NCBI GenBank assembly: GCA_903831815.1
Contig: CAIKZC010000001.1
Location: forward strand, 149,502-213,501
DNA length: 64,000 nt
Direction: 5' to 3'
Source of the DNA: an uncultured bacterium
GTDB lineage: Bacteria; Patescibacteriota; Minisyncoccia; Phycocordibacterales; UBA11359
This document shows positions 861 to 53,916 of the stretch, one piece after another. A program made the translations under genes and the position numbers. Numbering within the stretch: the stretch's first letter is position 1; each line of letters starts with the position of its first letter. Below the pieces are notes generated by a model. It did not search any database, had not been told where the DNA came from, and was given only the letters and a program-made list of their open reading frames with translations.

Positions 861-888
861 TAGTCATTATATACCAAGTATTAGCTTC

Positions 889-1003
889 AAAAATACGGAA
901 AAGTGTGTTGTGAGGGACTCACGGACGCCGACGGGCGGAGTGTGAAGGAAATTTCCAGCAGGAAATTTACCTGTGCCCGAACAACACACTTTTCCGTATT
1001 TTT
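889..1003. repeat. Copy 1 of an IR-flanked GC-rich core element. It is a perfect 23-bp inverted repeat, AAAAATACGGAAAAGTGTGTTGT (889-911 and 981-1003), enclosing a 69-nt GC-rich core.
   Basis: The arms and core are read directly from the sequence. The core GGGACTCACGGACGCCGACGGGCGGAGTGTGAAGG... is homologous to the cores at 9849-9905 (opposite orientation) and 17953-18013. It lies between the divergent recJ and HIT starts. Confidence 0.6.
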
Positions 1004-1020
1004 GATATATAATATCTGTT

Positions 1021-5781: not shown

Positions 5782-6297
5782 TCAATTGCTCCAAATATTT
5801 GTTAAATACACCGAAAGAGATTTGCTGGTAGTACCCGTTCCTCCATTCCAAGAAACTGTAGCCGTTATCAATGTCGTGCTAGCATCAAGTGTCGCTCCAG
5901 AAGTGCCATTTGGCACAATGTCCTTGGTGGCGTTTCGATATGTTGAACTGGCAATTATCGTCCGATCAAAAAATCCATCAATAAGCGATTGAGGGGTAAG
6001 GGTTGTAGACCATTTTGACGTTGTCGTATTGAAAGTTAAATAATATTTCGTTGAAGTGGCGGTTGAAAGCGTTGCTATGTTACCACTCCAGCTTTGATCT
6101 CGCAAAAGTTGCATGGATTCCAAACTCTCTTCCAACAAATATGCCGCTTGAATATTTGGCGTATTGTGGATCATGACCTGCAAATAATAATTGTAAGCGC
6201 CGATCAAACCCAAAATTCCGATCGTAATCATGGTGATGCCAATGAGAACTTCAACCATACCCATGCCTTTTTTATTTTTTAATGAAAAATATTTCAT
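5782..6297 (-). CDS. Type IV pilin / pseudopilin
   Basis: The N-terminus is MKYFSLKNKKG|MGMVEVLIGITMITIGIL, with G-1 and E+5 conserved. Confidence 0.7.
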   Translation of the reverse strand: MKYFSLKNKKGMGMVEVLIGITMITIGILGLIGAYNYYLQVMIHNTPNIQAAYLLEESLESMQLLRDQSWSGNIATLSTATSTKYYLTFNTTTSKWSTTLTPQSLIDGFFDRTIIASSTYRNATKDIVPNGTSGATLDASTTLITATVSWNGGTGTTSKSLSVYLTNIWSN

Positions 6298-9757: not shown

Positions 9758-9828
9758 GGAGAATAAGTGTGTTAAGTATAACAAATTAAATTCAAAAAAT
9801 CTCCACAAGATATACACGACTTGCGTAC

Positions 9829-9925
9829 AAGAATACGGTTTTCAGGGTCCGGATAGTTTTTCCGCTGAAAAACTTCCTCACACTCGCGCCGTCGCGCTCC
9901 GTGAGCCCCTGAAAACCGTATTCTT
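9829..9925. repeat. Copy 2 of the IR-flanked GC-rich core element. The 20-bp arms are AAGAATACGGTTTTCAGGG(T/G), and the core is in opposite orientation to copy 1.
   Basis: Arms at 9829-9848 and 9906-9925 match 19 of 20. The reverse-complemented core GCTCACGGAGCGCGACGGCGCGAGTGTGAGGAAG aligns with the copy-1 core at about 75% identity by eye. It sits between the divergent pilB and 10032 ORF starts. Confidence 0.6.
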
Positions 9926-10031
9926 TCCCGCAAGTTATGAATAAATTATGTAAATTTGACACCAGTAATGTTTTGTGATATTAAAGTAGAGGAAACTAGT
10001 ATTACTTTACCCATGAAAAGGAGTCCGCACA

Positions 10032-12091: not shown

Positions 12092-12116
12092 GATTTAAAA
12101 AAACAAACCAGCAAAC

Positions 12117-12146
12117 AAAAAACTTCCCTCCGGAAGTTTTTTGTTT
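12117..12146 (+). terminator. Rho-independent terminator after nusA (AACTTCC...GGAAGTT + T-run)
   Basis: Read directly from the sequence. Confidence 0.7.
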
Positions 12147-12290
12147 GTGAAAGGTTATCCACCACTATTACTTTGACGCAGCAAATAAAATAACTATACT
12201 ATTAGCTAGATAAGATTTGCTGTTGGCACGGTGCCAAATAGCAATTGTTGAATTTTATCGGTAACAACCATTGGCGAAGGAGCAGATACC

Positions 12291-12930: not shown

Positions 12931-14958
12931 ATGAACGCGTATATCATTTTTGCATTAGTAAGTTCGGTGGTCGCTATTGTTTACGGTCTCGTTCTCGCTC
13001 GAATTATTATTAAAAAAGATGCCGGTAGCGAACGAATGCAAGAAATCGCTAGCGCTATTCAAAAAGGCGCCAAAGCTTATCTCAATCGCCAATACAAAAC
13101 CGTTGCCATTGTTGCCATTGTTCTCTTCGCAATTATTTGGCCACTTATCGGTTTCACAACTGCTCTTGGTTTCGTGGTTGGAGCTGTTTTCTCAGCGCTC
13201 GCCGGATATATTGGAATGAACATTTCTGTGCGTGCTAACGTTCGTACAACTGAAGCTGCCAAAAAAGGAATTAAAGAAGCACTTTCTCTCGCTTTCCGCG
13301 GAGGCTCTGTTACAGGTTTGCTCGTTGTCGGTCTCGCTCTCCTCGGCGTTACCGGGTTTTACGCACTTTCAAACGGTGACACCAAAGCTCTCATTGGTCT
13401 CGCTTTTGGTGCCAGCTTAATTTCTGTTTTCGCTCGACTTGGTGGCGGTATTTTCACCAAAGCTGCTGACGTCGGCGCCGATCTAGTTGGAAAAGTTGAA
13501 GCCAATATTCCTGAAGATGATCCACGAAATCCTGCTGTCATTGCCGACAACGTTGGAGACAACGTCGGAGATTGCGCCGGTATGGCCGCCGATCTTTTTG
13601 AAACATATGTTGTGACAGCTATCGCCGCAATTTTGCTCGGCGGAATTATTTTCAAAGATGCTACCAAAGAAGTTTCTGACGCTGTCATAATGTTTCCTCT
13701 CGTACTCGGTGGTGTTTCAATTTTCTGTTCAATTATTGGAACATGGTTCGTGCGACTTGGAAAAAGCGGAAATATTATGAACGCTTTGTACAAAGGTCTC
13801 GCAGTTTCTGGAATTTTGGCCGCAATCGCTTTCTACTTTGTGACTAAAATGATCATGGTTGGAAATGGTTTGTTCACTTCAAATCAATTATTTATCTGTT
13901 CACTCATCGGACTTTTGTTAACTGCTGCGCTTGTTGTCATTACTGAGTACTACACTTCGACAAAATACGCGCCGGTCAAATCTATCGCCAAAGCTTCTCT
14001 CTCCGGTCACGGCACCAACGTCATTCAAGGTCTCGCTATTTCAATGAAAGCTACCGCACTTCCTCTCATTGCGATTGTGCTCGCAATTCTTGGTTCATAT
14101 CATTTTGCCGGATTGTACGGTATCGCTGTCGCCGCTGTTGCTATGCTTTCAATGGCCGGAATTATTGTAGCTATCGATTCATACGGTCCAATTACTGATA
14201 ACGCGGGAGGTATTGCCGAAATGGCGGAGTTGCCACAAGAAGTTCGTGATGTTACTGATCCGCTCGACGCTGTTGGAAACACAACCAAAGCCGTTACCAA
14301 AGGGTATGCCATTGGTTCTGCTGGGCTTGCTGCTCTCGTTTTGTTTGCTTCATATACACAAGAATTTGCAAACATGGGACATTCTCTAGTTTTCAGTTTA
14401 AGTGATCCAAAAGTTATTGTCGGTTTGTTTATCGGCGGACTTCTTCCATACTACTTCGCGGCAATGTGCATGGAAGCCGTTGGTAAAGCAGCTGGCGCTG
14501 TCGTCGAAGAAGTCCGCCGCCAATTCCGCGAGATCGCCGGCATTATGCAAGGCACCGCAAAACCAGATTATGAAAAGTGTGTCGACATCGTTACCCTTGG
14601 CGCTATCAAAGAAATGATTTTGCCTTCTCTCATCCCTGTCGTCGCTCCAATTCTAGTTGGATTTATTTTGGGTCCTGTTGCCCTCGGCGGTTTGCTCGTC
14701 GGTTCAATCGTTACCGGTTTGTTCGTCGCTATTTCCATGACTTCAGGAGGAGGTGCTTGGGACAATGCCAAGAAATTTATTGAAAAAGGTGAACATGGTG
14801 GCAAAGGTGGAGATGCTCACAAAGCCGCTGTCACCGGAGACACTGTCGGCGATCCATACAAAGATACCGCCGGTCCAGCCATCAACCCAATGATCAAGAT
14901 CTTGAACATTGTCGCTCTCCTCATCGTGCCATTCCTCATTAAATTCTTGATTAAGTAA
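12931..14958 (+). CDS. hppA: Membrane-bound proton-translocating pyrophosphatase
   Basis: The 675-aa polytopic protein carries the H+-PPase signatures [20 protein letters not shown] and [19 protein letters not shown]. Confidence 0.95.
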
Positions 14959-15058
14959 TCGTAAAACGCAAAAGATTGACTTTAAAATCTGATTTGCTAG
15001 CATATTAGTACTCAGACGAAAAAGGATCCGAAAGGTGTAAGTGCCTTAGGAGCCTTTT

Positions 15059-15592
15059 TCATTTACGGCCAATATAGGTCTTAAGATTCTCCAAGTAATC
15101 ATATAATTCTGAACCCATTCCTCTATACAAAGAAGAAGCAAATTTTTTGTTGGGAAACAATATCTTTTTGAATCGTTTTTCTTCAATCAAAAATTCTACC
15201 AGCAATTTATAATCACCATCCCCAGAAACCAAAATTACTTTATCAAAATCTTCTTTTCTATAAAGCTTCTTCATCGCATAGAAAATAATATCCGAATCGA
15301 CATTTCCTTTTTTATTCCCTACCATCCCCTCAAGATGTCTCTTGAACACAACAATAAACCCGGCATTCTGAATTTTTTCATACAACTCTTGTGCCTTGTC
15401 CGTATCCTGAACATAACCTAAATGATAATAGGCTTTATCAACGCTATATTTTTCAGCAAGATAAACTCTGAATCTTTTCAAATCAATAGTCCAAGGATCA
15501 ATTTCCTTTTTCGTCGTGCCCATATACAAATTCTGTCCATCAATAAACGCGATATTTTTCATTTCTTCTAGAGCGTAGCAACAATTTTTCAT
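15059..15592 (-). CDS. NYN-domain (LabA-like) protein, a predicted RNase. An alternative start is at 15562 (MKNIAFIDG).
   Basis: Motifs FIDGQNLY, VDSDII and LVSGDGDY match the NYN/PIN-like fold (PF01936). Confidence 0.75.
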   Translation of the reverse strand: MKNCCYALEEMKNIAFIDGQNLYMGTTKKEIDPWTIDLKRFRVYLAEKYSVDKAYYHLGYVQDTDKAQELYEKIQNAGFIVVFKRHLEGMVGNKKGNVDSDIIFYAMKKLYRKEDFDKVILVSGDGDYKLLVEFLIEEKRFKKILFPNKKFASSLYRGMGSELYDYLENLKTYIGRK

Positions 15593-15814
15593 TTCATTCT
15601 GAAGTTATCCCCGTAAGAAGATACTGCCCAATACACAAAAAAATAACCCAGAAATACTAAATATCCCTAAAAATAAGGGTATTTTGTTAAAACAATCTAC
15701 TCAAACTGCAAAATTGCTTGACATTTGACTCAAAATCTGCTATACTATTAATGCGAGAGATTCGAATAACGCTGTGTTGTTTGAATACTCTTGGTTCTTT
15801 GAGTCAGGTGAAAT

Positions 15815-15928
15815 ATGAAGACCTTCATGAAAATCTGTATCGAAATTGCTACCGTGGTCTGTGTTGGTTTGGCGGTCGTCATCACTGGCTGGCGGTTCCT
15901 GCGGGGAACCTATCGCTGGCCATCATGA
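15815..15928 (+). CDS. Small hydrophobic peptide (37 aa, single predicted TM helix), MKTFMKICIEIATVVCVGLAVVITGWRFLRGTYRWPS
   Basis: A strong TTGACA-N17-TATACT promoter is at 15718-15746 and an AGGTGA RBS precedes the ATG. A terminator hairpin is at about 15965-15995. It is absent from the ORF track because it is under 60 aa. Confidence 0.3.
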   Translation: MKTFMKICIEIATVVCVGLAVVITGWRFLRGTYRWPS

Positions 15929-16073
15929 CACAGGAGTCGCTTTTCAGATAGCGTTTAATATCTGGAGCCCATGCGAAAGTGTGGGTTTTTTCTTGCAAAA
16001 TTTTTCATTTCCCGCTAAAGTAAGGCGACCAAATTAATATATTTATAAATCACGACGTTTAATTTACACAACC

Positions 16074-17105
16074 ATGAAACCAGAATACAAAATCACCGCT
16101 ACCAACAAACTTCCGCACAGCGAAGTTGAAATAACCGTTGAATTACCGGCCACCGCGCTTGATGAATATCGAAAAAAGGCTATCACTGCGCTTGGTAAAG
16201 AGGTGGCAATGGACGGTTTCCGTAAAGGTCATGTGCCGGAAAATGTTTTGGTTTCAAAGATTGGTGAAGGTCGCATTTTGGAAGAAGCTGCTGAACTTGC
16301 TCTGCAAAATGTAACTCCGGCAATTCTCGCCGACGAGAAAATGGATTTTATCACTCAGCCAAAAGTTGCGGTTACAAAATTGGCGACAGGAAATCCTATC
16401 GAATTCAAATTAACAATTGCTCTCATGCCTGAAGTTGGTTTACCTGATTACAAAAAAATTGCCAAAGAAGAGATGGCTAAAAAAGTTGAAGAAGTTGTGG
16501 TCACCGATGAAGACGTCGAAAAAGTTATTGAAGACATTCGCAAGCGCATGGCTCCCCTTCCGGAAAAAGAAGGTGAGGAGCCAAAATTGCCGGAACTCAA
16601 CGAAGAGTTAATCAAACAACTTGGAAAATTTGAAGACGTGGCTGATTTCAAAATAAAATTAAATGAAAACATTAAACAAGAACGTTTAAATCAACAGCGC
16701 GAGAAAAAGCGTATTGGTATCGCCGAAGATTTGGTTTTGGAATGCAAGATTGATTTGCCGGAAGCGTTTGTCGAACAAGAAATCGCTCTTATGCTCGCTC
16801 GTTTCAAAGACGATATCTCTCGCATGGGTCTAAAGTTTGACGAATATTTGAAACACATCAAGAAAACTGAGGAAGATCTCCGAAAAGATTGGCGAGTTGA
16901 TGCTGAGAAAAAAGCCAAATTGGAATTGGTTTTTGTGGAAATTGCCAAAGCTGAAAAAATAAAACCGGAAGAAGAAAAAGTTTCCAAAGAAGTCGAGCAC
17001 CTCATTGAACATTACCCAACCGCCGACAAAGACCGCGCGAGAGCTTATATCATAAAGCAACTGACACAAGACCTTGTCTTCGAATTCCTAGAGTCACAGA
17101 AATAG
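16074..17105 (+). CDS. tig: Trigger factor, short form lacking the PPIase domain
   Basis: The N-terminal ribosome-binding domain with GFRKGHVP is joined directly to the C-terminal arm domain, for 343 aa against about 430 typical. It lies upstream of clpP as in the canonical tig-clpP arrangement. Confidence 0.8.
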   Translation: MKPEYKITATNKLPHSEVEITVELPATALDEYRKKAITALGKEVAMDGFRKGHVPENVLVSKIGEGRILEEAAELALQNVTPAILADEKMDFITQPKVAVTKLATGNPIEFKLTIALMPEVGLPDYKKIAKEEMAKKVEEVVVTDEDVEKVIEDIRKRMAPLPEKEGEEPKLPELNEELIKQLGKFEDVADFKIKLNENIKQERLNQQREKKRIGIAEDLVLECKIDLPEAFVEQEIALMLARFKDDISRMGLKFDEYLKHIKKTEEDLRKDWRVDAEKKAKLELVFVEIAKAEKIKPEEEKVSKEVEHLIEHYPTADKDRARAYIIKQLTQDLVFEFLESQK

Positions 17106-17125
17106 AAAATAAAAATATAAGCAAC

Positions 17126-17152
17126 AAAAAACTTCCGATTGGAAGTTTTTTG
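17126..17152. terminator. Bidirectional terminator (AAAAAACTTCCGATTGGAAGTTTTTT) between the convergent tig and rsmE
   Basis: A perfect hairpin with A-run and T-run flanks. Confidence 0.7.
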
Positions 17153-17158
17153 TTGCCA

Positions 17159-17908
17159 TTACAAAAGAAAAAGTGTCGCTGCCACAATAGCGGCGGTTTC
17201 CGCGCGCAGTGTCGCATCACCGAGCGAAAGAATATTTACATCGCGTTTTTTAAATTGTTCTATCTCCGTATCGCTCCAACCGCCTTCCGGCCCAATGAAA
17301 ATTGCGATTTTTGTTGTGACCTGCCCCTTTCCACTCGCATCTGCAGAATTTTTTAATTTCTGTGCAATAAATTCTGCAGTTTCCATCAAGCCCTCTTCCA
17401 AATGGAAAGCAACGGCCGGTATTTTTTCTTTTTGAATTTCATTGAGCGCTTCATCAAGTGAAATAATCTGGCGAAGTTCCGGCAACGTTCCTCTACCCGA
17501 TTGCTCAGATGCTTCCTTCACAATTTTCAAACCGCGCTCATGATTAAAATTTGTTTTAACACTTCGTCCAGAAATTATCGGAATAAAATGAGTCACGCCG
17601 ATTTCCGTTCCCTTTTCCAAAATCCATTCAAAATTATCTTTTTTGATCATGGAAACATACAAAAATATTTCGCGCGATTGTTTTACCGAATTTTTTGTCA
17701 TTTCTAAAACTTCGAAAACTCCTTCGTCTTTAGAAAGCAAATCGACTCGCGAACGATATTGAAATCCGCTGTTGTCGAGCAAAATAATTTCATCACCTTT
17801 TTCCAAACGAAAAACATTTTTAAGTTGGTGCAACAAATCAGCATCATCTATTCGCACACTTTTCGCTTCTCCAATTTTCTGCTCAATAAAAAAGTTATGT
17901 AACCTCAT
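17159..17908 (-). CDS. rsmE: 16S rRNA (uracil1498-N3)-methyltransferase RsmE
   Basis: The 249-aa protein has a PUA-like N-terminus and a SPOUT C-terminus (GPEGGW...E). Confidence 0.8.
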   Translation of the reverse strand: MRLHNFFIEQKIGEAKSVRIDDADLLHQLKNVFRLEKGDEIILLDNSGFQYRSRVDLLSKDEGVFEVLEMTKNSVKQSREIFLYVSMIKKDNFEWILEKGTEIGVTHFIPIISGRSVKTNFNHERGLKIVKEASEQSGRGTLPELRQIISLDEALNEIQKEKIPAVAFHLEEGLMETAEFIAQKLKNSADASGKGQVTTKIAIFIGPEGGWSDTEIEQFKKRDVNILSLGDATLRAETAAIVAATLFLL

Positions 17909-17920
17909 GTAAATGATTTT

Positions 17921-18045
17921 ACACTAAACAAAACCGAAAACATACTTTTGAGTGCCTTGCGCAGCGCGACTGGCGCGAGCGGAGCGGACGGCCAGTAGGC
18001 CGGAACGCGTGCAACTCAAAAGTATGTTTTCGGTTTTGTTTAGTG
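17921..18045. repeat. Copy 3 of the IR-flanked GC-rich core element. A perfect 32-bp inverted repeat, ACACTAAACAAAACCGAAAACATACTTTTGAG, encloses a 61-nt GC-rich core.
   Basis: Arms are at 17921-17952 and 18014-18045. The core contains AGCGCGACTGGCGCGAG, matching AGCGCGACGGCGCGAG in copy 2. It lies 13 nt upstream of the rsmE start, in the divergent rsmE/clpP intergenic region. Confidence 0.6.
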
Positions 18046-18123
18046 TCACCATTTTTGAAGTTTTACGTCTACTCTGCTATACTCCCCGTGTAGCAATTAC
18101 AACCAATTTAACCCTTAAAATAT

Positions 18124-18696
18124 ATGAACCTTATCCCAACAGTTATCGAAAAATCTCAAAACGGCGAGCGGGCATACGATATTTACTCACGCTTGCTCAA
18201 AGAGCGTATTATTTTCCTCGGTGGTCCGATCGACGACGATAGCGCCAATATTGTCATCGCTCAATTACTTTTCCTTCAATCTGAAGATCCTAAAAAAGAT
18301 ATTTCCATGTACATCAATTCTCCTGGTGGATCCGTCACAGCCGCTCTCGCCATTCTCGACACCATGAATTTTATTAAATCAGACGTTTCAACCGTTTGTG
18401 TCGGTCTCGCTGCTTCTGCTGGCGCACTTCTCCTCTCAGCTGGCGTCAAAGGCAAGCGTTTTGCTCTCACCAATTCCGAAATTATGATTCACCAACCATC
18501 AGGTGGAGCTGAAGGGCGCGCTGCCGATATTGAAATCACCGCTAAACAAATTATAAAAATTCGAGAAAACCTCAACAAAATTTTGGCTGCCAACACTGGA
18601 CAACCACTTTCAAAAATCCAAAAAGACGTTGATCGCGACTTTTTCATGAGCGCCGAAGAAGCCAAAAAGTACGGCATCATAGACAAAATCCTATAA
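18124..18696 (+). CDS. clpP: ATP-dependent Clp protease proteolytic subunit
   Basis: The 190-aa translation has the Ser-His-Asp triad context ([19 protein letters not shown]). Confidence 0.95.
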
Positions 18697-19833: not shown

Positions 19834-21363
19834 ATGTCACCACAATTATTAGTTATAGTCGCCATATTGATTGCGATTGTTGGTGCTGCGATTGGATATT
19901 ACCTTCGATTGGTAATTTCTCTCGGCAAGCGCGGAACAATCGAAGTTGAAATGAAGGAAATGCTCCTCAAAGCCAAGGAGGAAGCAAAGCGCATCACTCT
20001 AGACGCCGAAAACAAGGCAGTCGAAGTCATGCAACAAACGCGCACCGAAGCTAAAGAGCGTGAAGAAAAATTAAAGAAAGCCGAAGAGCGTCTCATCAAA
20101 AAAGAAGACCAAATTGACGAGCGAGAGCAATCTGTTGTCTCGGAAATCGAATCGATCAAACAAAAAATCGCCGAGATAAAAGAAATTCGTGACAAAACCG
20201 AATTACTGCAAGCCGAAAAGCAAAAAGAATTGGAAAAAGTTGCTAAATTAGATGAAACTGAAGCCAAGGCGATTTTAATTCAAAATCTCGAGCAAAAATG
20301 CGAAGAGGATTTGCTTATTCGTATGCACAAACTCGAACAATTCGGTCAAGATAAAATCGAACAACGAGCCAAAAGTATTATCGCCACAGCCATTCATCGA
20401 CTTGGCAATTCCGTCTCCCCTGACCTCATGACCACTTCTGTGGCTATTCCTAACGACGAAATTAAGGGAAAAATTATCGGTAAGGAAGGCCGTAACATCA
20501 AAGCTTTTGAAAGAATGACCGGCGTTGAAGTTATTGTTGATGATACCCCGGGAATGATCACTATTTCTTCTTTCGATCCAATTCGCCGACAAATCGCGCG
20601 CATTTCTTTGGAATTATTGATTGCCGACGGTCGTATTCAACCCGCCAAAATAGAAGAGACGGTTGAAAAAGCAAAACTCCAGATCAACAAAACAATTAAA
20701 GAAAAAGGTGATGCTGCCGTTTATGAATGTGGTCTCTTCAACCTTGATCCACGAATCGTTTCTATTCTCGGTCGTCTCTGTTTTCGCACAAGTTATGGAC
20801 AAAATGTTTTGCAACACTCCGTAGAAGTTGCACACATTGCCGGCATGATTGCCGAAGAACTTGGTGCAGATGTCCAAATCGCCAAAGCTGGTGGACTTCT
20901 ACACGATATCGGCAAAGCTGTTGACCACGAAGTTCAGGGAACTCACGTTGAAATCGGTCGCAGAATTCTACAGAAATTTGGCGCTTCGGAAGAAATTGTC
21001 AAAGCTATGCAAGCTCACCACGAAGAATATCCTTACGAAACACTTGAATCCATCGTTGTTCAAGCCGCCGATGCTATTTCCGGCAGTCGTCCAGGTGCTC
21101 GTGTTGATAGTTTGGAAAATTATCTAAAACGACTTGGCGATCTCGAAGCTATTGCTAATTCATTTGAGGGTATTGAAAAAACTTACGCTATCGCTGCCGG
21201 TCGTGAAGTGCGAGTCTTCGTTACTCCCCTTTCTGTCAGCGACTTGCAAGCTCATGATTTGGCCCGAAATATTGCTATAAAAATTGAGCAGGAACTAAAA
21301 TATCCAGGAGAAATCAAAGTTACTGTTATTCGCGAGTCTCGTGTAATTGAATTCGCGAGATAG
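19834..21363 (+). CDS. rny: Ribonuclease Y
   Basis: It has an N-terminal TM helix, a coiled coil, a KH domain and an HD domain (HSVEVAHIAGMIA, LLHDIGKA). Confidence 0.9.
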   Translation: MSPQLLVIVAILIAIVGAAIGYYLRLVISLGKRGTIEVEMKEMLLKAKEEAKRITLDAENKAVEVMQQTRTEAKEREEKLKKAEERLIKKEDQIDEREQSVVSEIESIKQKIAEIKEIRDKTELLQAEKQKELEKVAKLDETEAKAILIQNLEQKCEEDLLIRMHKLEQFGQDKIEQRAKSIIATAIHRLGNSVSPDLMTTSVAIPNDEIKGKIIGKEGRNIKAFERMTGVEVIVDDTPGMITISSFDPIRRQIARISLELLIADGRIQPAKIEETVEKAKLQINKTIKEKGDAAVYECGLFNLDPRIVSILGRLCFRTSYGQNVLQHSVEVAHIAGMIAEELGADVQIAKAGGLLHDIGKAVDHEVQGTHVEIGRRILQKFGASEEIVKAMQAHHEEYPYETLESIVVQAADAISGSRPGARVDSLENYLKRLGDLEAIANSFEGIEKTYAIAAGREVRVFVTPLSVSDLQAHDLARNIAIKIEQELKYPGEIKVTVIRESRVIEFAR

Positions 21364-22251: not shown

Positions 22252-22322
22252 TGCGGGATGGGAGAATCGAACTCCCGCCTACAGTTTGGAAAACTGCAGT
22301 TCTACCATTAAACTAATCCCGC
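22252..22322 (-). tRNA. tRNA-Gly (anticodon UCC)
   Basis: I folded it by hand. The acceptor is GCGGGAU/AUCCCGC, the anticodon stem GCAGU/ACUGU with loop UUUCCAA, and the T-arm GGGAG-UUCGAUU-CUCCC, for 71 nt. CCA is not encoded. Confidence 0.85.
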
Positions 22323-22371
22323 AATATGACTGCAATGAAAAGACTATACCATACAACACAAAACCTCGCAC

Positions 22372-22689
22372 TTATTTCATCGTATCATTATTTATTTTCT
22401 CGATTTTCGACAAAACGCTACTCAAATCATCACCAGGCGCAGTTTTATTTCGTTTTATATAGCCACACACAACACATTTGTTGGAAAGAATAAATTCATC
22501 TTTTTCCATCTCGATTTTTATCGGCTCCATCATACCGCCACATTTTTCGGCCCGATCTCCCGGAAATTTATCGACATGTTTGCTCCACAAACAAGTCGGG
22601 CAGTGGTTGGTGTAGCCACTTCCCTTCACTTCGCGGCTGCAATGACCGCAAACGAAATCTTCTTTATTTTTCTGAAACTTTAGACTCAT
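22372..22689 (-). CDS. RNHCP-domain protein (Cys-rich zinc ribbon)
   Basis: It carries the GYTNHCPTCLWSKH motif characteristic of the RNHCP domain, plus multiple CxxC pairs. Confidence 0.65.
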   Translation of the reverse strand: MSLKFQKNKEDFVCGHCSREVKGSGYTNHCPTCLWSKHVDKFPGDRAEKCGGMMEPIKIEMEKDEFILSNKCVVCGYIKRNKTAPGDDLSSVLSKIEKINNDTMK

Positions 22690-23098
22690 GGGTGTTCAAA
22701 AAAATTTTCATTAATTCTACATCTCTCAGATCTTTTTCTCTTGCCAGTTCCGATTTAAATTTAATAAGTTCCGTTAATGGTAAAAATGGTAAACCCTCAA
22801 TGATATCTGCATTTTTTATCAATTCATCGGTATCCGGTCGATAATTTTTATATTTATAATTTGAAAACACCTCAGTATCGCCCTTAACCAATAGTTTACA
22901 ACGCAAAACTCGCCAGAAAAACCATTTTCTTTTCCAGCCGTCGTTTTTTAGTTGTTGAAACAACTCTTTATTTACCAACAGATCAACATCCCTGGCCGGT
23001 CTAATTCCATGAGCTTCCATGACACCCCCTATTATAATATATTGACCGAGAGGTAAATTTAGTGATTTTACCCTTTCGAAAATAGAAGGATTATTCAT
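22664..23098 (-). CDS. Putative minimal nucleotidyltransferase (NTase-fold) protein
   Basis: IIGGVMEAHGIRPARDVDLLV fits the G[GS]x9-13Dh[DE]h NTase motif. Its stop region overlaps the downstream RNHCP ORF by 26 nt. Confidence 0.45.
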   Translation of the reverse strand: MNNPSIFERVKSLNLPLGQYIIIGGVMEAHGIRPARDVDLLVNKELFQQLKNDGWKRKWFFWRVLRCKLLVKGDTEVFSNYKYKNYRPDTDELIKNADIIEGLPFLPLTELIKFKSELAREKDLRDVELMKIFLNTHESKVSEK

Positions 23099-23107
23099 AA
23101 CAAAATG

Positions 23108-23180
23108 TCGGAGTGCAGGGATTCGAACCCTGAGTCATCTGCTCCCAAAGCAGACATGTTAGCCGTTACACCACACTCCG
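23108..23180 (-). tRNA. tRNA-Pro (anticodon UGG)
   Basis: Hand fold: acceptor CGGAGUG/CACUCCG, anticodon stem UCUGC/GCAGA with loop UUUGGGA, T-arm CAGGG-UUCGAAU-CCCUG, 73 nt. Confidence 0.85.
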
Positions 23181-23325
23181 GTAGAAACAATACTATCACA
23201 CGTACATAAAAATAACTAGCAAAAAAACAGTTAATTTGGCTAATTTCTTCGAGAGAATTCTAAAGGACATTCCTAGTCAGAGAAATGTCCTTTAGAAAAT
23301 CCCAGTGACCTATTGCAAAAACCTA

Positions 23326-23700
23326 CTACAAAATTAGATTCTCAATAAACCTAACCTTAGCCTTCTTTGAAGCGGTGTCTACTCGTATAGCAATGAGCGC
23401 CGCCGACCATTCCATCTCATTAATTCCCTTTTCCTGCAAATAAGTCTGAATAACCCTGGTAAATTTCTTGATCTTGTTCGGACTCATGTTATCTTCCGGT
23501 CTGTAACCAGACCGACTATCATCTCCACCCGTTTCACACGAAACAGTCTTAACTTCCACAAAGCACAGCTTCTTGGCCTTTTTGGCCACAATATCCAATT
23601 CTCCCCACTTCCGGCTATAATTTCTTTCCAAGACCTTGAACCCATGTTTCTTGAGAAACACACAGGCAATATCTTCACCGAACCTCCCTATTTTGTTCAT
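23326..23700 (-). CDS. yraN: YraN-family (UPF0102) endonuclease
   Basis: The 124-aa protein has G.FGEDIA..FL...GF.VLERNY and GELDIVA....FVEVKT motifs. Confidence 0.8.
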   Translation of the reverse strand: MNKIGRFGEDIACVFLKKHGFKVLERNYSRKWGELDIVAKKAKKLCFVEVKTVSCETGGDDSRSGYRPEDNMSPNKIKKFTRVIQTYLQEKGINEMEWSAALIAIRVDTASKKAKVRFIENLIL

Positions 23701-24158
23701 TTTATTGGTTTTTTACTTAGAATTAATAATTTACGCTCGATTCATCACACAAATTTACCCAGACGCACATTGCTTTTATCGCTAAGTTTCATGAATAACA
23801 ACACTCTCTATGTTTCACATGAAACCTTTTAGCTGAAAGTACGACAAAAGGTCTATTTTTAGGCACATTTCACCAAAATGTCTATAGTTTTATAGCCATT
23901 TATTGGACATTTTTGACTGTCTTTTATACACATGTCCCCAGAGTTATCCACATAATTGTTGAAAAATATAGGTATTTCTGTTTACAGAAACCTAAAGGAC
24001 ACATCGATTTCAAAGACTTCCTCAAGCCTAGCAAATAGAGATAAAATATTTATAAAATTTTCTATTTTCTTTTTAGAAAAATTTTAGACCTACTTTAGAC
24101 AACAAAAATCGCCATTTCATTGGCGATTTTTGTTTTGCTCTAATTTTTGTTTTCTTTG

Positions 24159-24232
24159 TGGTGCGGCCAGGGAGAATCGGACTCCCATCTCATCCTTGGC
24201 AAGGACGTGTTCTACCACTAAACCATGGCCGC
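24159..24232 (-). tRNA. tRNA-Gly (anticodon GCC), with an encoded 3' CCA and an unusual T-loop UCCGAUU
   Basis: Hand fold: acceptor GCGGCCA/UGGCCGC, anticodon loop UUGCCAA, T-stem GGGAG/CUCCC, then ACCA at the 3' end. Position 55 is C rather than U. Confidence 0.75.
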
Positions 24233-24352
24233 AAATATCCAACTGAATATTTATCAATCGATTATACAGAAAAATCAGAAAAACACAAAATCAGTTCGCC
24301 AAATATTTATTCATTTTGGTTTTTTGACAATTTGCGCTATGATTGTGTTACT

Positions 24353-24424
24353 GCACCCGTCGTTCAATGGATAGGACAATAGTCTTCGGAACTATTGATG
24401 TGGGTTCGATTCCTGCCGGGTGCA
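24353..24424 (+). tRNA. tRNA-Arg (anticodon UCG)
   Basis: Hand fold: acceptor GCACCCG/CGGGUGC, D-arm GUUC/GGAC, anticodon stem AUAGU/ACUAU with loop CUUCGGA. The T-arm GUGGG-UUCGAUU-CCUGC has two G-U pairs. Confidence 0.75.
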
Positions 24425-31522: not shown

Positions 31523-32095
31523 ATGACAGTTATTAAACACAAAGATCAACGCGTCGGTATTTTTATTGATACACAAAATCTATATCACAGCGCAAAAAAC
31601 CTTTATCATGCTCGGGTTAATTTTGGAGCAGTAGTCAAAGAAGCTCTCGGCGGTCGTTCTCTTATTCGCGCCGTCGCTTATGTTATCACCACCGAATCAG
31701 GTGAAGAAAAAGCATTTTTTGATGCCTTGGAAAAAGTTGGAATTGAAACCAAGACCAAAGATCTGCAAATTTTTATGGGTGGATCAAAAAAAGCCGATTG
31801 GGACGTAGGACTTGCCGTTGATGCCATTAAACTCGCACCAAAACTCGACACAGTCATCCTCGCAACAGGGGACGGCGACTTCGTACCGCTTGTAGAATAC
31901 CTCCGAACTAATCAAGGTTGCCAAGTTGAAGTTATTTCCTTCGGCAAATCCACTTCCAGTATGTTGAAAGAAGCGACCGACGACTTCATCGATATGTGCG
32001 ATAATCCGAAAAAATATTTATTGGGTAATCAAAAACAACAAAATGGGGAGCGAAAACAGGAGCAGAAAACGGAAAACGGAAAAGAGGTTAAGTAA
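31523..32095 (+). CDS. NYN-domain (LabA-like) protein, the second copy in the window
   Basis: Motifs GIFIDTQNLY and ILATGDGDFVPLVE are present. It is inserted between rpsO and pnp. Confidence 0.75.
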   Translation: MTVIKHKDQRVGIFIDTQNLYHSAKNLYHARVNFGAVVKEALGGRSLIRAVAYVITTESGEEKAFFDALEKVGIETKTKDLQIFMGGSKKADWDVGLAVDAIKLAPKLDTVILATGDGDFVPLVEYLRTNQGCQVEVISFGKSTSSMLKEATDDFIDMCDNPKKYLLGNQKQQNGERKQEQKTENGKEVK

Positions 32096-33195: not shown

Positions 33196-35442
33196 ATGCA
33201 AACGAAAGAATATTCGTTGGAAATCGGTGGGACGACGATCACGGCGCAGTTTAGTAATTTGGCCGATCAGGCACACGGTTCATGTATCGTGAAGTCGGGT
33301 GGCACGGTAGTACTTGCGACCGCAGTCATGTCCGAAAAAGAAAAAGAGGGAAGCGACTTTTTTCCTTTGACCGTTGAGTATGAGGAACGTTTCTATGCTG
33401 TCGGAAAAATTCTCGGAAGCCAATTTGTGCGTCGCGAGGGCAAAGCTTCCGAAGAAGCCACTTTGACCGGCCGAATTGTTGACCGAACTATCCGTCCACT
33501 TTTCAATCAACAAATCAGGAATGAAGTACAGGTCATCATCACCGTCCTTGCTCTCGATGAACAAGATCCGGACACTCTCGCCGTTTTGGCAGCATCACTC
33601 GCACTTGGAACTTCAAATATTCCTTGGGGAGGACCAGTGAGCGCGGCTAGGATTTTGAACTTGAAAAATGCGGCTGGTCAGGCCGATGTAGGTTATTTGG
33701 TCAATCCAAATTATGTTTCGCGCAAACAACCGAACATCAATTTTGAAATGATTGCTTGCGGCAAGGATGGAAACATAAACATGATCGAAGTGGGCGGTTT
33801 TGAAGCTTCGGAAAAAGTCATGATCGAAGCTCTTGATCATGCATCAAAAGAAATTGAAAAGATCCAGGAATTCCAGAAAAATATCATCAAAGAGATCGGC
33901 AAAGAAAAGCGCGTTATAAAATTACCGGAAATTTTGCCAGAGGTCGCCGCTTTATATAAAGAAGTGATCGAACCGGAAATGGACGCTTCGCTTTTCACCA
34001 AAGGCAAAGCCGGCATGCACAATATGCAGAAAAAATGGTCTGAGCTTGTTAAAGAGAAATTTCCAGAATCAGATATTATGCTCGCCGAAGCTTATTGTGA
34101 TGAAAAAATAAATCAATATATTCACAAAGAGGCGATCGAGAAACAACGACGACCTGATGGCCGAAAACTAGACGAGATCCGACCACTTTTTGCTGAAGCT
34201 GGTGGAATTGCACCTGTACTTCACGGTACCGGAACATTCTATCGTGGCGAAACACATGTGCTCGGTGTACTTACACTTGGTGGCCCACAAGACACACAAA
34301 CTATCGACAGTATCGAAGACCCAGGCAAAAAACGCTTCATGCTTCATTACAATTTTCCTCCATATTCAAGCGGCGAAACCGGTCGCATGGGCGGAACAAA
34401 TCGTCGCATGATTGGACACGGTGCGCTCGCAGAAAAAGCTTTGTTTGCCGTTTTGCCTCCACTAACAAAATTCCCATACACGATTCGTATCGTCGCTGAA
34501 GCCATGGCTTCGAACGGTTCGACTTCGATGGCTTCGGTTTGCGCCGGAACAATCGCGATGATGGATGGAGGTGTGCCGATTTTGCGGCCGGTGGCAGGCA
34601 TTGCTTCTGGCCTCATGATGCAAAGCCCTGAAAAATACGTCGTGTTGACTGACATACAAGGACCGGAGGATCACCACGGTGACATGGATTTCAAAGTGGC
34701 CGGCACAACCGAAGGAATCACCGCGGTTCAAATGGACGTAAAAGTTGACGGTATTCCACTTAAAATTTTGGCCGAAGCTTTTGAAAAAGCTCGACTCGCA
34801 CGTTTGCAAATTTTGGATGTCATTACGAAAGCTATTCCAGCTCCACGTCCACAAATTTCTTCTCGAGCTCCACGCATTTTGGCGATTATGATCAAAGAAG
34901 ATCAGATCGGTCTCATTATCGGTCCTGGCGGAAAAACTATTAACGAAATTATCGACAAAACCGGTGCAGAAATAAATATCGAAGAAGACGGCACAGTTAT
35001 GATTGTCGGAAAAGGGGACAGCGTCGACAATGCCGCAAACATAATTCGCAACATGACGCGAGAATATTTGAAAGGCGAAAGATTTACCGCCGAAGTTATG
35101 AAAATTACGGACTTTGGCGCTTTTGTGAAAATTGGACCAAATACCGAAGGACTAGTCCATGTTTCCGAGATCGCGCCTTTCCGAGTTGATCGAGTCGAAA
35201 AATATTTGAAGCTTGGACAGCAAGTTCCTGTTATAATAAAAGATATTGATGAAAAGAATCGTCTCAGCTTATCAATCAAACTAGCCGACGCAAATTTCAT
35301 CAAACAAATTCCGGTTGCACCTATGGCAAGCGCAGCACCTAGACCGGCAACACCTACAACAACCGCACCGACTAGTGCACCGACAACTAATCCAACAACA
35401 AACGGAGTAAACAATGGACCCCAGAAACCAACCACAATTTAA
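33196..35442 (+). CDS. pnp: Polyribonucleotide nucleotidyltransferase (PNPase) with a Pro/Thr-rich C-terminal tail
   Basis: It has two RNase PH domains, a KH domain and an S1 domain (GGGDTL..., FGAFVKIGPNTEGLVHVSEI), and the tail APRPATPTTTAPTSAPTTNPTTN. Confidence 0.95.
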   Translation: MQTKEYSLEIGGTTITAQFSNLADQAHGSCIVKSGGTVVLATAVMSEKEKEGSDFFPLTVEYEERFYAVGKILGSQFVRREGKASEEATLTGRIVDRTIRPLFNQQIRNEVQVIITVLALDEQDPDTLAVLAASLALGTSNIPWGGPVSAARILNLKNAAGQADVGYLVNPNYVSRKQPNINFEMIACGKDGNINMIEVGGFEASEKVMIEALDHASKEIEKIQEFQKNIIKEIGKEKRVIKLPEILPEVAALYKEVIEPEMDASLFTKGKAGMHNMQKKWSELVKEKFPESDIMLAEAYCDEKINQYIHKEAIEKQRRPDGRKLDEIRPLFAEAGGIAPVLHGTGTFYRGETHVLGVLTLGGPQDTQTIDSIEDPGKKRFMLHYNFPPYSSGETGRMGGTNRRMIGHGALAEKALFAVLPPLTKFPYTIRIVAEAMASNGSTSMASVCAGTIAMMDGGVPILRPVAGIASGLMMQSPEKYVVLTDIQGPEDHHGDMDFKVAGTTEGITAVQMDVKVDGIPLKILAEAFEKARLARLQILDVITKAIPAPRPQISSRAPRILAIMIKEDQIGLIIGPGGKTINEIIDKTGAEINIEEDGTVMIVGKGDSVDNAANIIRNMTREYLKGERFTAEVMKITDFGAFVKIGPNTEGLVHVSEIAPFRVDRVEKYLKLGQQVPVIIKDIDEKNRLSLSIKLADANFIKQIPVAPMASAAPRPATPTTTAPTSAPTTNPTTNGVNNGPQKPTTI

Positions 35443-36391
35443 TCCGAAAATTCCAATATCAGAAGTTCTAAAACAAGAACAAACTGGTTTTGTTACTTCC
35501 GCACCAACAATTCCGAGATCCGGTTCCGGAGTTGTGCCGAAAGATAGTCAAAACAAAATAATTAAAACTTACAAAAGCGACGCGGCTGATGCTGTGAGAT
35601 CACAACAGCAGGTTTCTGTGGCGAAAATCGCTATAGCGCAAGAAAATCAGCGCCGAGCAGAAGGGGAGGAGATCGGCGCCGCGCCAAAAAAACGAACCGG
35701 ACTGATATTCGTCGCCATCATATTACTTCTGCTCGGCGCTGCCGCCATCCCAACTGTTAAATATATCCTTAACCAAAAAACCGTCGCAGTCCCTATTGCC
35801 GTCGAAAAAACGATCATTCCTTTCGATCACCAAGAAAATGCCTTATTGAATTATGCCACCCGCACCGAATTGCTTGCGGCGCTTGGCGTTGTAAAGGCCA
35901 AACCTCAAACAAATTTCTCGATCGAATACATAAAAATTTTGGAAAATATTTTTGACGCAAATCAGAAAAACGTACCAACAAAAATAGCGCCTGATATTTT
36001 TGCAGGTATCCTTGGTCCAAATATGCCATCCGCCCTCGCTCGCTCTTTTGATTCCGATTACATGTTCGGAATTGCAAATTCAAATAATCCAAAACCGTTT
36101 TTGCTTTTCATAACATCTTCATATGAACAAACATTCGCAAATATGTTGAAATGGGAAACTAAAATGACGACCGACCTCGCTCCTATCTTCAATCTCAATC
36201 TCAGCTCTACAACTGCGACCTTCACCGACCAAGTCATCATCAACAAAGATGTTCGAGCTATCACGGCTCCGGATGGCACTATCGTTTTCCTCTACGGATT
36301 TTTGGATAACAACACGCTTGTCATCACAACCGATCCTCAAACATTCCAAGACATCAACTCTCGTTACGTCGCCGCCCGTTTCGTGCAATAG
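35414..36391 (+). CDS. Hypothetical single-pass membrane protein (325 aa)
   Basis: It has one TM helix (LIFVAIILLLLGAAAIP) and overlaps the pnp 3' end by 29 nt, so the true start is uncertain. Confidence 0.45.
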   Translation: MDPRNQPQFNPKIPISEVLKQEQTGFVTSAPTIPRSGSGVVPKDSQNKIIKTYKSDAADAVRSQQQVSVAKIAIAQENQRRAEGEEIGAAPKKRTGLIFVAIILLLLGAAAIPTVKYILNQKTVAVPIAVEKTIIPFDHQENALLNYATRTELLAALGVVKAKPQTNFSIEYIKILENIFDANQKNVPTKIAPDIFAGILGPNMPSALARSFDSDYMFGIANSNNPKPFLLFITSSYEQTFANMLKWETKMTTDLAPIFNLNLSSTTATFTDQVIINKDVRAITAPDGTIVFLYGFLDNNTLVITTDPQTFQDINSRYVAARFVQ

Positions 36392-50271: not shown

Positions 50272-50682
50272 ATGCGATATCAAGTTCCCCAATTTATTGA
50301 AATCGAGGACAAGATCTTTGGACCACTTACGATCAAGCAGTTCGTATATCTCGCTGGCGGGGCAGCACTGTCATATCTCGTCTATGCGCTTTTGAGTCCA
50401 TATTTGCCATTTTTTATCGTTATCATTCTGATGTTACCGACCGCCGCATTTGGTGTGGCGTTGGCATTTTACAAGATCAACAACAAACCGTTCATCAACG
50501 TCGTTGAAGCTGCCATAAAATATTATATCGGAAGTAAATTGTATCTTTGGAAAAAAGAGGCCAAACAAGTCACGAAACAGGAAGTCACTGCATCTGCAAA
50601 CGCAACAATAGTTCCAAAACTGGCCGACAGCAAGCTTAAAGATCTGGCCTGGAACCTAGATATTTCGGAGAAAAAAATATAA
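50272..50682 (+). CDS. PrgI-family (VirB3-like) small membrane protein of a Gram-positive-type T4SS
   Basis: The N-terminus MRYQVPQFIEIEDKIFGPLTIKQFVYLAGG is followed by two TM helices, matching the PrgI family from memory. Confidence 0.6.
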   Translation: MRYQVPQFIEIEDKIFGPLTIKQFVYLAGGAALSYLVYALLSPYLPFFIVIILMLPTAAFGVALAFYKINNKPFINVVEAAIKYYIGSKLYLWKKEAKQVTKQEVTASANATIVPKLADSKLKDLAWNLDISEKKI

Positions 50683-50696
50683 AATTAACCAACATT

Positions 50697-51338
50697 ATGC
50701 CCGTATCAGCCAAAGCAACACAAGATTTTGTTCCCATCAAAGAAATTCGTGATGGTGTAGTTATTTTGAAGGATGGATCGATGCGATCCATTTTGTTGGC
50801 TTCATCACTCAACCTGGCCCTAAAATCCGCCGATGAACAACAAGCTATCCTCATGCAATTTCAAGATTTTCTTAACTCCTTGGATTTTTCCGTACAAATT
50901 TTTGTTGAATCTCGCCGTTTAGATATTCGACCGTACATGGCCCTTCTCGAACAGCGATATAAAGAACAAACAACGGATCTAATGAAACTGCAAACGCGAG
51001 AATATATTGAATTCATCAGGAATTTTACGGAAAGCGTCAGTATTATGACCAAAAGCTTTTTTGTGGTCATTCCTTATATGCCTCCGATTCTTACGAGCGG
51101 CAGTAGTTTAAATATTTTGAGCAAGAAAAAGAGCACTGCCGCATCAAAAGTTTTAGATGCTACGGCTCAATTTGAAGAGAATCGTAGCCAATTGGATCAG
51201 CGTATTTCGGTTGCCGAACAAGGTTTAATGCGATGCGGGATCAGAGTCATAAAACTAGGAAGCGAAGAAATGGTTGAGCTTTATTACAAACTGTTCAACC
51301 CCGGTGAGACCGAGAAACCTATCCAACTAAGCAATTAA
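50697..51338 (+). CDS. Protein resembling the extreme N-terminal region of VirB4/TrbE ATPases; possibly a split-off VirB4 N-domain
   Basis: VPIKEIRDGVVILKDGSMRSILLASSLNLALKSADEQQAILMQFQDFLNSL parallels the conserved VirB4 N-terminus (for example, TrwK TIISTKNAEYLSVWKIDGRSHQSASEADVFQWIRELNNTL). It ends 1 nt before the VirB4 ATPase ORF, in a different frame. Confidence 0.35.
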   Translation: MPVSAKATQDFVPIKEIRDGVVILKDGSMRSILLASSLNLALKSADEQQAILMQFQDFLNSLDFSVQIFVESRRLDIRPYMALLEQRYKEQTTDLMKLQTREYIEFIRNFTESVSIMTKSFFVVIPYMPPILTSGSSLNILSKKKSTAASKVLDATAQFEENRSQLDQRISVAEQGLMRCGIRVIKLGSEEMVELYYKLFNPGETEKPIQLSN

Positions 51339-51339
51339 T

Positions 51340-53175: not shown

Positions 53176-53177
53176 TC

Positions 53178-53888: not shown

Positions 53889-53916
53889 ATGTTAATAATG
53901 GTATAATAAAATAGAC

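Follow-up and report, generated by a model that had tools for sequence, protein, structure and literature searches.

Several classes of hairpin-forming sequence are known from the spaces between bacterial genes. Bidirectional intrinsic (Rho-independent) terminators stand after stop codons and between convergent genes. The repetitive extragenic palindromic (REP) elements of Proteobacteria, with the bacterial interspersed mosaic elements (BIMEs), the REPINs and the RAYT protein that belong to the same system, are multi-copy palindromes found mostly at gene 3' ends. Miniature inverted-repeat transposable elements (MITEs), such as Correia in Neisseria and ERIC/IRU in enterobacteria, are intergenic palindromic repeats of about 100-150 bp lying near promoters or terminators, and integron attC sites, for instance the Vibrio VCRs, sit just after an open reading frame (ORF) in a fixed orientation. 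TRIT is reportedly a conserved repeated terminator motif of Mycobacterium tuberculosis, presented by Gardner and colleagues in the RNIE paper of 2011. Here we describe an element found in a 64-kb stretch of DNA from an uncultured patescibacterium (contig CAIKZC010000001.1; hereafter the window, to whose full length all window counts refer). It lies at 17921-18046, between the divergent genes rsmE and clpP, and is the third copy of its kind in the window (copy 3). Our analysis identifies copy 3 as a genuine member of a multi-copy family, specific to Patescibacteria (the Candidate Phyla Radiation, CPR), of "hierarchical palindromes" of ~110-130 bp, which is apparently uncatalogued and matches no Rfam family. 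A full-text literature search found no description of the element.

Copy 3 is 126 bp long and consists of 2 arms of 33 nt (17921-17953 and 18014-18046) that a repeat search found to be 100% complementary, with 60 nt between them. The initial annotation had described a perfect stem of 32 bp, ending at 18045 and standing 13 nt from rsmE; the perfect pairing holds, while the arms are in fact 33 nt, the element ends at 18046 and the distance to the ATG is 12 nt. Its statement that this is the longest perfect inverted repeat of the window agrees with the repeat search, where the only longer pair (9797-9957, belonging to copy 2) is 78% complementary. By our own estimate, chance would produce a 33-nt perfect inverted repeat within 300 nt fewer than 1e-10 times in 64 kb. 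The left arm, A-rich, begins 12 nt from the start codon of rsmE (16S rRNA methyltransferase, 17159-17908, minus strand; ATG at 17908; PF04452, 5e-41), and the right arm, T-rich, ends 78 nt from that of clpP (18124-18696, plus strand; ATG at 18124; PF00574, 3e-84). Together the arms form the outer stem, P1, which encloses a GC-rich core (17954-18013, motif strand plus) folding into a three-way junction. In the consensus structure, P2 spans 17958-17981 and comprises P2a (TGC at 17958-60 with GCG at 17979-81), an internal loop GCA / GA and P2b (GCGC at 17964-67 with GCGC at 17973-76), closed by a GACTG loop. P3 is a hairpin at 17984-18008 (GCG..CGGCC AGTA GGCCG..CGC) with an AGNN-type loop. The inner hairpin and the shared block that had been noticed in the core were both located, the former, GGCCAGTAGGCC, at 17990-18001 and the latter, AGCGCGACTGGCGCGAG, at 17963-17979; copy 2 has the same block on its minus strand, lacking the T, and copy 1 has the covarying ACGCCGACGGGCGGAG.

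The predicted structure is very stable, as had been proposed, and this applies to arms plus core. As RNA, the plus strand of copy 3 folds at -77.5 kcal/mol compared to -36.2 +/- 3.3 kcal/mol for shuffled sequences (z = -12.6; 0 of 200 shuffles as stable), and the minus strand folds at -73.3 kcal/mol. When both strands of 36 copies were folded, the 2 strands of copy 3 gave -78.8 and -78.5 kcal/mol, that is, both folded equally well. As DNA, the element folds at -54 kcal/mol (z = -13.2) and its other strand at -51 kcal/mol.

The repetition of the element is confirmed by a covariance model which, with filters off, finds exactly 3 copies in the window at 95.5, 94.9 and 55.3 bits, the next match scoring 21 bits. 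Copy 1 (887-1005, plus strand, subfamily A, 94.9 bits) lies between the divergent recJ and a HIT-family gene and has arms of 30 nt, 93% complementary, around a 59-nt spacer. Copy 2 (9797-9957, minus strand, subfamily A, 95.5 bits), whose arms also came from the inverted-repeat search, lies between the divergent pilB/T2SSE gene and orf148, and has an orthologous counterpart at 20355-20442 of locus L020. A spacing of 59-60 nt between the arms is common to the 3 window copies; their arms differ, their centres align, and all 3 centres fold the same three-way junction. Two further sites deserve mention as side observations. The best sub-threshold match of the family model in the window (31711-31795, 21.4 bits, 35% GC) falls inside an ORF (31523-32095) and is probably due to chance. 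At 35648-35741, inside the ORF at 35414-36391, CAGCGCCGAGCAGAAG forms a perfect inverted repeat of 16 nt whose arms are 62 nt apart; it has family-like spacing and no covariance-model match, and is probably unrelated.

To define the family outside the window, we searched one genome per species for the core pattern ACGGA-SSSS-GACG-SSSS-GAGTGTG. This returned 18 loci, 17 of them in Patescibacteria metagenome-assembled genomes (MAGs) belonging to Paceibacterota, Taylorbacteria UBA11359 and several Saccharibacteria; a single Saccharibacteria MAG supplies at least 9 of the 18. The remaining match, in Phycisphaerales, was rejected as a family member as it is without the architecture. Of the 10 true copies added by a metagenome scan, about half are duplicates from a single Saccharibacteria MAG, and chance pattern matches from other metagenomes were rejected by the covariance model. 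Three scans of viral contigs gave no core-pattern matches. The covariance model (A2, R1) was built from 22 copies, copy 3 among them, and recovered 40 copies in the sequences searched, of which the 36 distinct sequences were used for statistics; the hosts are Paceibacteria, Taylorbacteria and Saccharibacteria MAGs. Copy 3, itself a training sequence, scores 54-55 bits (R1; E ~1e-15 to 1e-16) with all the helices that define the family, outer stem, P2 and P3 around the three-way junction. Searching the whole window against Rfam 15 at the gathering threshold returned only 4 tRNAs, and at E<=10 the surroundings of copy 3 and copy 1 gave, on either strand, only sub-threshold matches to plant miRNA precursors, which are generic long hairpins. 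The family element had no Rfam match to Y RNA, and ARAGORN found no tRNA-like gene on it. The 4 tRNA genes of the window form a cluster at 22252-24424, 3 on the minus strand and one on the plus.

Across the family, the outer stem is 20-45 bp long, locus-specific and almost perfectly Watson-Crick, and it is capped by a ~60-nt GC-rich three-way junction made of P2 and P3. The 5' arms are 52% A and 18% T, therefore the 3' arm is T-rich on either strand. On the motif strand the consensus runs from the outer stem through GGG and the junction into P2a (3 bp), then a P2 internal loop 5'-G-S-A / 3'-G-A, P2b made of four G/C pairs, and a GACG loop; P3 follows with 3 bp, a bulged A, ~7 bp and a tetraloop that is mostly AGNN, before G-K-R and CCC. 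The GACG/GACTG loop residues are invariant or nearly so across copies. Two subfamilies are told apart by a covarying P2a, namely A (CUCAC...GUGUGA) and B (UUGC...GCRG, which includes copy 3). They interconvert at orthologous sites: the slot after the H+-pyrophosphatase (H+-PPase) gene is A-type in L021 and B-type in L023, with homologous arms. As P2 and P3 are small palindromes themselves, nearly every base is paired on whichever strand folds. K-turn, loop-E, hammerhead and twister readings of the core were considered on inspection and set aside, their sequence requirements being absent.

Covariation gave very strong support to this structure. Across the 36 distinct sequences, standard pairs make up 95.5% of pair cells compared to 65% in shuffles, 26 of 28 pairs show double-sided changes, and 285 cells are compensated, values that were reached by none of 500 shuffles; controls with a slid register pair only 36-53%. 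In P2b alone, 141 of 143 cells are Watson-Crick. The core helices hold 576 Watson-Crick, 3 G.U and 4 A.C cells (G.U in 3 of 592 cells) and the arms outside the model 434 Watson-Crick, 1 G.U and 2 A.C (G.U in 1 of 440). An RNA selected on one strand normally has several per cent G.U. The near-exclusive Watson-Crick pairing fits a constraint felt by both strands, whether they fold as cruciform DNA or are both transcribed, or else a hairpin-templated correction between the arms. Counting G.U against A.C cells was also tried as a test of the functional strand and abandoned, as a loose alignment of the arms gave a noisy 87 vs 55 and strict counting leaves almost no wobbles.

We also looked at the history of copy 3 in relatives, as the clpP/rsmE locus is syntenic in all those examined. 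A homologous element in the same orientation is present in the spacers of the close relatives L021 and L023 and of L051/L052 (Taylorbacteria UBA11359), whose RsmE is ~67% identical, and the spacers of a close relative, L020 (88 nt), and of L050 (85 nt) contain neither arms nor core. The comparison of related clpP and rsmE upstream regions, which had been suggested to see whether the element is an insertion, thus gave either a recognisable core with its inverted repeat or the loss of both, and never the same sequence without them. In a neighbour-joining tree of RsmE the empty lineages L020 and L050 nest among carriers; copy 3 is therefore ancestral at this site and was cleanly deleted twice, a conclusion to which a single-gene tree lends modest weight and which runs against a recent insertion. 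Among the four orthologous copies, 17 of 45 pairs have changed on both sides. Within the outer stem 12 of 26 pairs vary, all compensated by Watson-Crick pairs and none half-changed or broken, and P3 covaries fully (GGCC/GGCC in copy 3, AAAGUC/GACUUU in L021, AAAGCC/GGCUUU in L051). The unpaired core is nearly invariant among orthologues, while the flanking spacer DNA is unalignable. These alignments indicate that pairing and core are both maintained at the site, which could be by selection, by concerted evolution with other copies or by hairpin-templated correction.

The position of copy 3 relative to the promoters of its neighbours is important to interpret its role. A promoter scan predicts a clpP promoter, TTGAAG-N17-TATACT, at 18055-18083 on the plus strand, starting 9 nt beyond the right arm. 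Its -10/discriminator block is conserved in every orthologous spacer, as GGGGAGTATA(G/A)CA on the reverse complement in the window, L020, L021, L023, L050 and L051, with the minor variant CAGGGGAGTATAGCA occurring in L051. On the other side, a -10-like TAAAAT on the minus strand (17916-17921), read from the sequence, 7 nt before the ATG and overlapping the first base of the arm, marks the putative rsmE promoter; for want of a -35 it was not called by the scan. A -10-like hexamer (in the relatives TATACT, TATAAT, TACAAT, TATATT or TATAGT) is nonetheless found 6-8 nt before the rsmE ATG in all these six lineages, whether the element is present or not. There is no room for a Shine-Dalgarno sequence between it and the ATG, which suggests that the rsmE mRNA is leaderless or nearly so. 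Similar -10 boxes lie 6-7 nt before the start codons of recJ and the HIT gene that flank copy 1. Because the predicted and conserved boxes of clpP and rsmE lie outside copy 3, the element is upstream of both predicted core promoters and probably belongs to neither 5' untranslated region (UTR).

Other readings of the arms and core were rejected. Inward promoter-like sites in the copy 3 arms (TTTACA/GTGACA-17-CATACT) do not hold, as neither CATAC nor the spacing is conserved in L021 or L023. The arms do not provide the -35 of the rsmE promoter either, the distance from arm end to -10 varying from 0 to 16 nt among orthologues. A CIRCE/HrcA operator, suggested by the presence of clpP, was dismissed as the inner arm GAGTGC is not conserved and reads GAATGC in orthologues. 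The promoter scan found no promoter-like site in the 60-bp core; this, with the identical orientation of the four orthologues, speaks against an invertible promoter switch (inverton).

In most copies of the family, which stand in tandem or convergent gene pairs, a few nt separate the start of the element from a stop codon; the distance from the covariance-model boundary to the stop codon is 3-34 nt, and the copy at L021 12935-13060 is one example. At some loci the arms touch the adjacent start and stop codons. About 7 independent copies lie between divergent genes, including all three of the window (recJ/HIT, pilB/orf148, rsmE/clpP). For elements that adjoin a single gene's stop codon, the motif strand runs antisense to this gene 19 times and in the sense direction 4 times. 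At locus L003, 2 elements stand back to back, ~120 nt apart, within one convergent gene pair (5991-6077, minus, and 6200-6284, plus), each antisense to the gene it abuts. Replication direction was rejected as the cause of orientation: single loci of 8-20 kb contain both orientations, and so does the window, which is placed entirely to one side of dnaA and the cumulative GC-skew minimum; the bias therefore tracks local transcription and not replication. No conserved promoter boxes were found upstream of the 5' arm of the motif strand in 36 copies.

Exchange between the element and plain hairpins was observed at one orthologous site. In the convergent rsmE/tig gap, the window has a plain, perfect 16-bp hairpin directly after the rsmE stop codon (17121-17156, A6-CTTCC-loop-GGAAG-T6), an ordinary form of bidirectional terminator; L021 shares this form (A6-CTYCC-loop-GGRAG-T6), and in L023 a family element starts directly after the same TAA. 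The H+-PPase 3' slot holds different subfamilies in L020, L021 and L023. Two near-identical plain hairpins in the window (12112-12147 and 17121-17156) read (C/G)AAACAAAAAACTTCC-NNNN-GGAAGTTTTTTGTT(T/G)(G/C), with 5 matches to the half-site compared to 0.5 expected and a close variant in the rsmE/tig gap of L021; they are either a favoured design of bidirectional terminator or a second small repeat family. In the H+-PPase 3' region of L020 (12380-12430), a plain imperfect hairpin (GCAACAAAAAACTCACGAAG...) is immediately adjoined by a degenerate family element (46.5 bits), therefore both types of hairpin can coexist in tandem. In one Saccharibacteria MAG, near-identical units of ~105 nt (GATAC...core...GTATC) are nested in differing short outer palindromes that resemble terminator stems, a pattern that insertion into terminator loops would be expected to leave. 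Different copies share arms within L003/L005 and within L023. The arms of the window copies are largely unrelated, and in some MAGs the inner 10-20 nt alone are shared.

Taken together, we tentatively favour, at a little under an even chance, a strand-symmetric intergenic module of a repeat-like family that forms a hairpin or cruciform, usually occupies the slot of a terminator and there probably stops or insulates transcription; at clpP/rsmE it would act, if at all, at the level of DNA. At most loci the stem starts at a stop codon, in the place of the plain A-tract/T-tract terminator hairpin. At clpP/rsmE the element lies between 2 outward-facing core promoters and probably in neither mRNA; there it could space or insulate the promoters from each other, or be bound by a structure-specific protein. 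The family would multiply and turn over like a non-autonomous repeat, with single copies inherited vertically for long periods, and the arms would stay paired through selection on both strands or through hairpin-templated correction. Several observations weigh against this interpretation. Copy 3 sits where no terminator is needed, and its arms are without a GC clamp or a clean U-tract. The GC-rich centre of 60 bp disfavours cruciform extrusion, and the promoter calls that place the element outside both mRNAs are consensus matches combined with conservation. A symmetric hairpin leaves unexplained the 19:4 orientation bias relative to the upstream gene, the back-to-back pair of L003 and the conserved unpaired nucleotides (the GSA/GA, GACG and AGNN loops and the junctions). 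Finally, 30 of 36 copies fold more stably on the motif strand (by a mean of 5.5 kcal/mol), and subfamily B retains a U.G pair in P2a in 4 of 4 orthologues, both hinting at one preferred strand.

We considered four rival explanations. The family may be a selfish, non-autonomous mobile element with no host function, on whose folded single-stranded DNA a transposase or recombinase acts (compare REP/REPIN-RAYT, the PATEs of IS200/IS605 and integron attC) and which lodges in hairpin loops and intergenic DNA, the only positions tolerated, its structure and unpaired bases being kept for recognition. This is unlikely, though we give it serious weight: the nested near-identical units of the Saccharibacteria MAG, the presence or absence of arms and core as one unit, the change of subfamily within the H+-PPase 3' slot and the conservation of loops over stems would all follow from it, as would the antisense position, relative to the upstream gene, of the strand competent to fold. 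In attC, the recombinogenic bottom strand is likewise antisense to its ORF. Against it, a scan of 20 window ORFs with Pfam, a limited test, found no transposase, RAYT or HUH gene; there is no target-site duplication, no conserved terminus and no copy in the viral contigs scanned; and the mixed orientations within one replichore leave the bias unexplained by lagging-strand-specific insertion. Moreover, copy 3 is intact, core included, down to 67% RsmE identity, and an inert parasite should not persist in this way unless by gene conversion or self-correction. A structured noncoding RNA (ncRNA) transcribed from the motif strand, trans-acting or protein-binding, with the long stem joining its 5' and 3' ends and the three-way junction as functional domain, is less probable again. 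Strong covariation combined with conserved purine-rich loops and junctions is typical of functional RNAs, the AGNN-type P3 loops, the greater stability of the motif strand and the U.G pair of subfamily B agree with it, and the T-rich 3' arm could end the transcript. A Y-RNA-like partner is also raised by a gene of the Ro60/TROVE type near rsmE in one relative. The partners of Ro60 are Y RNAs, which likewise have long terminal stems. That gene (vWA_Ro60; contig ERZ1426827, genes 14882-16501) is ~4 kb away from rsmE; the insert separating rsmE from tig, to which it belongs, also carries a STIV_B116-like gene. The scarcity of G.U pairs in core and arms is nevertheless unusual for selection on RNA of one strand, no promoter is conserved before the 5' arm and none would find room where arms touch start or stop codons, and the promoter-like matches on the copy 3 motif strand are weak and not conserved in orthologues. 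Dozens of copies with unrelated stems would also be unusual for a trans-acting RNA, and Rfam, Y RNA included, gives no match.

The orientation bias would be accommodated if the element worked on the mRNA strand, the complement of the motif, as an orientation-specific 3'-UTR or intercistronic element that terminates, processes or stabilises the upstream mRNA through a factor recognising its pyrimidine-rich loops. Consistent with it are a stem that starts at the stop codon and the arrangement in L003, where each of the 2 convergent genes has its own element, oriented alike with respect to that gene. We regard this explanation as distinctly improbable, since it is inapplicable to copy 3 and the other 6-7 copies of divergent spacers, all three window copies included, the fold of the mRNA strand is the weaker in most copies, and the Watson-Crick-only pattern is left unexplained. 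A very stable 5'-UTR structure regulating rsmE or clpP as riboswitch, thermometer or attenuator, the placement offered by the initial annotation, is very improbable: proximity to both start codons (12 and 78 nt) and conservation of the locus in four lineages would suit it, but the conserved clpP -35 and -10 lie downstream of the element and a positionally conserved -10 separates it from the rsmE ATG, 2 relatives are without it, the same element follows stop codons of unrelated genes, and no cis-regulatory family of Rfam matches. None of these rivals jointly explains the Watson-Crick-only pairing, the orientation bias and the conserved loops.

A bolder possibility, less likely than not but to our mind realistic, is that the conserved cap formed by the three-way junction serves for recognition in a system particular to Patescibacteria, one that would read folded nucleic acid and depend on its orientation. 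If so, the element could be a device devoted to ending or insulating transcription, in place of ordinary terminators in these minimal genomes, or alternatively a new mobile element that targets the loops of terminator hairpins and folds by itself so that the terminator still works. In either case, structure kept on both DNA strands would explain the Watson-Crick-only covariation. The element is one of the few conserved non-coding features visible in the tiny, dense genomes of CPR/Patescibacteria, occurring in several of their classes and in several copies per 10-60 kb, and the family is suited to Rfam-style curation. A 2022 preprint on the cultivated Saccharibacteria strain TM7x states that the organism has no validated small RNAs. 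The family unites an unusual trio of properties, namely locus-specific perfect arms that co-evolve without wobble intermediates, a conserved asymmetric cap and a strong orientation bias relative to the upstream gene. It bears on how transcription units are delimited under minimal regulatory machinery and on the upkeep of long palindromes in bacterial DNA.

Some observations on the wider window are worth recording. The dnaA gene (Pfam Bac_DnaA, DnaA_N and DnaA_C) at 57992-59356 adjoins the cumulative GC-skew minimum (~56-58 kb), so that a replication origin probably lies near 57-58 kb, in which case replication would meet the transcription of many genes at 24-57 kb head-on. Small PrgI-family and type IV secretion system (T4SS) pilin-like proteins at 50272-55370 indicate a type IV secretion or conjugation-like cluster at ~47-56 kb. 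A search for transposases found none among the 20 ORFs scanned against Pfam.

Compared to the systems described above, the element is closest in its working to bidirectional terminators. It shares with them an A-tract/stem/T-tract polarity that is the same on both strands, the position after stop codons or between convergent genes, stems with Watson-Crick pairs alone, which would be expected where transcripts of both strands have to fold, and interchangeability with a plain hairpin at one orthologous site. It departs from them in that its "loop" is a conserved GC-rich three-way junction of ~60 nt, compared to 3-8 nt in terminators, in the preferred orientation of its core and in the presence of elements such as copy 3 between divergent promoters. 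Copy 3 in particular has the stem of an intrinsic terminator but not its other features: its loop is 60 nt, its T-rich 3' arm is interrupted (GTTTTCGGTTTTGTTTAGTGT), the terminator scan made no call, and it lies between 2 start codons, whereas most other family members follow stop codons. TRIT resembles the element in being a lineage-specific, sequence-conserved, multi-copy set of terminator-like hairpins between genes, but its extended hairpin is reportedly simple, conserves the sequence of its stem and is not known to carry a three-way-junction cap.

As a genomic population, the family recalls REP/BIME elements and REPINs, with which it has in common multiple extragenic palindromes mostly at gene 3' ends that fold as single-stranded DNA or RNA, vertical inheritance at orthologous sites and, as proposed for REP, a possible use as sites for structure-specific proteins. 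In those elements, however, the stem is conserved and the centre variable, whereas here the stems are locus-specific (20-45 bp, nearly perfect) and the centre is conserved; the host phylum is different, and the conserved REP stem with its 5' GTAG-like tetranucleotide has no counterpart among stems that vary by locus. The resemblance to MITEs such as Correia and ERIC/IRU lies in size, in intergenic palindromic form near promoters and terminators and in presence/absence polymorphism. MITEs carry family-wide terminal inverted repeats and target-site duplications, and the element shows neither: no direct repeat flanks copies 1-3 or the Saccharibacteria copies, or distinguishes the filled from the empty clpP/rsmE site. 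With integron attC sites the element shares conservation of structure over stem sequence, a place just after an ORF in fixed orientation and a folding strand that is antisense. An attC stem, however, has conserved R''/R' boxes (GTTRRRY) at its base, contains extrahelical bases and varies at its tip, whereas here the base is variable, the stem perfect and the tip conserved; the base of the copy 3 stem has perfect arms, no conserved box and no attC core sites (RYYYAAC ... GTTRRRY), and the flanking genes (clpP, rsmE, tig, H+-PPase, rny) are syntenic housekeeping genes in all relatives and not cassettes of the attC type. In conclusion, by analogy the element appears most like a capped bidirectional terminator in its working and most like a REP/REPIN or MITE as a genomic population, while differing from each of them in the features by which that class is defined.

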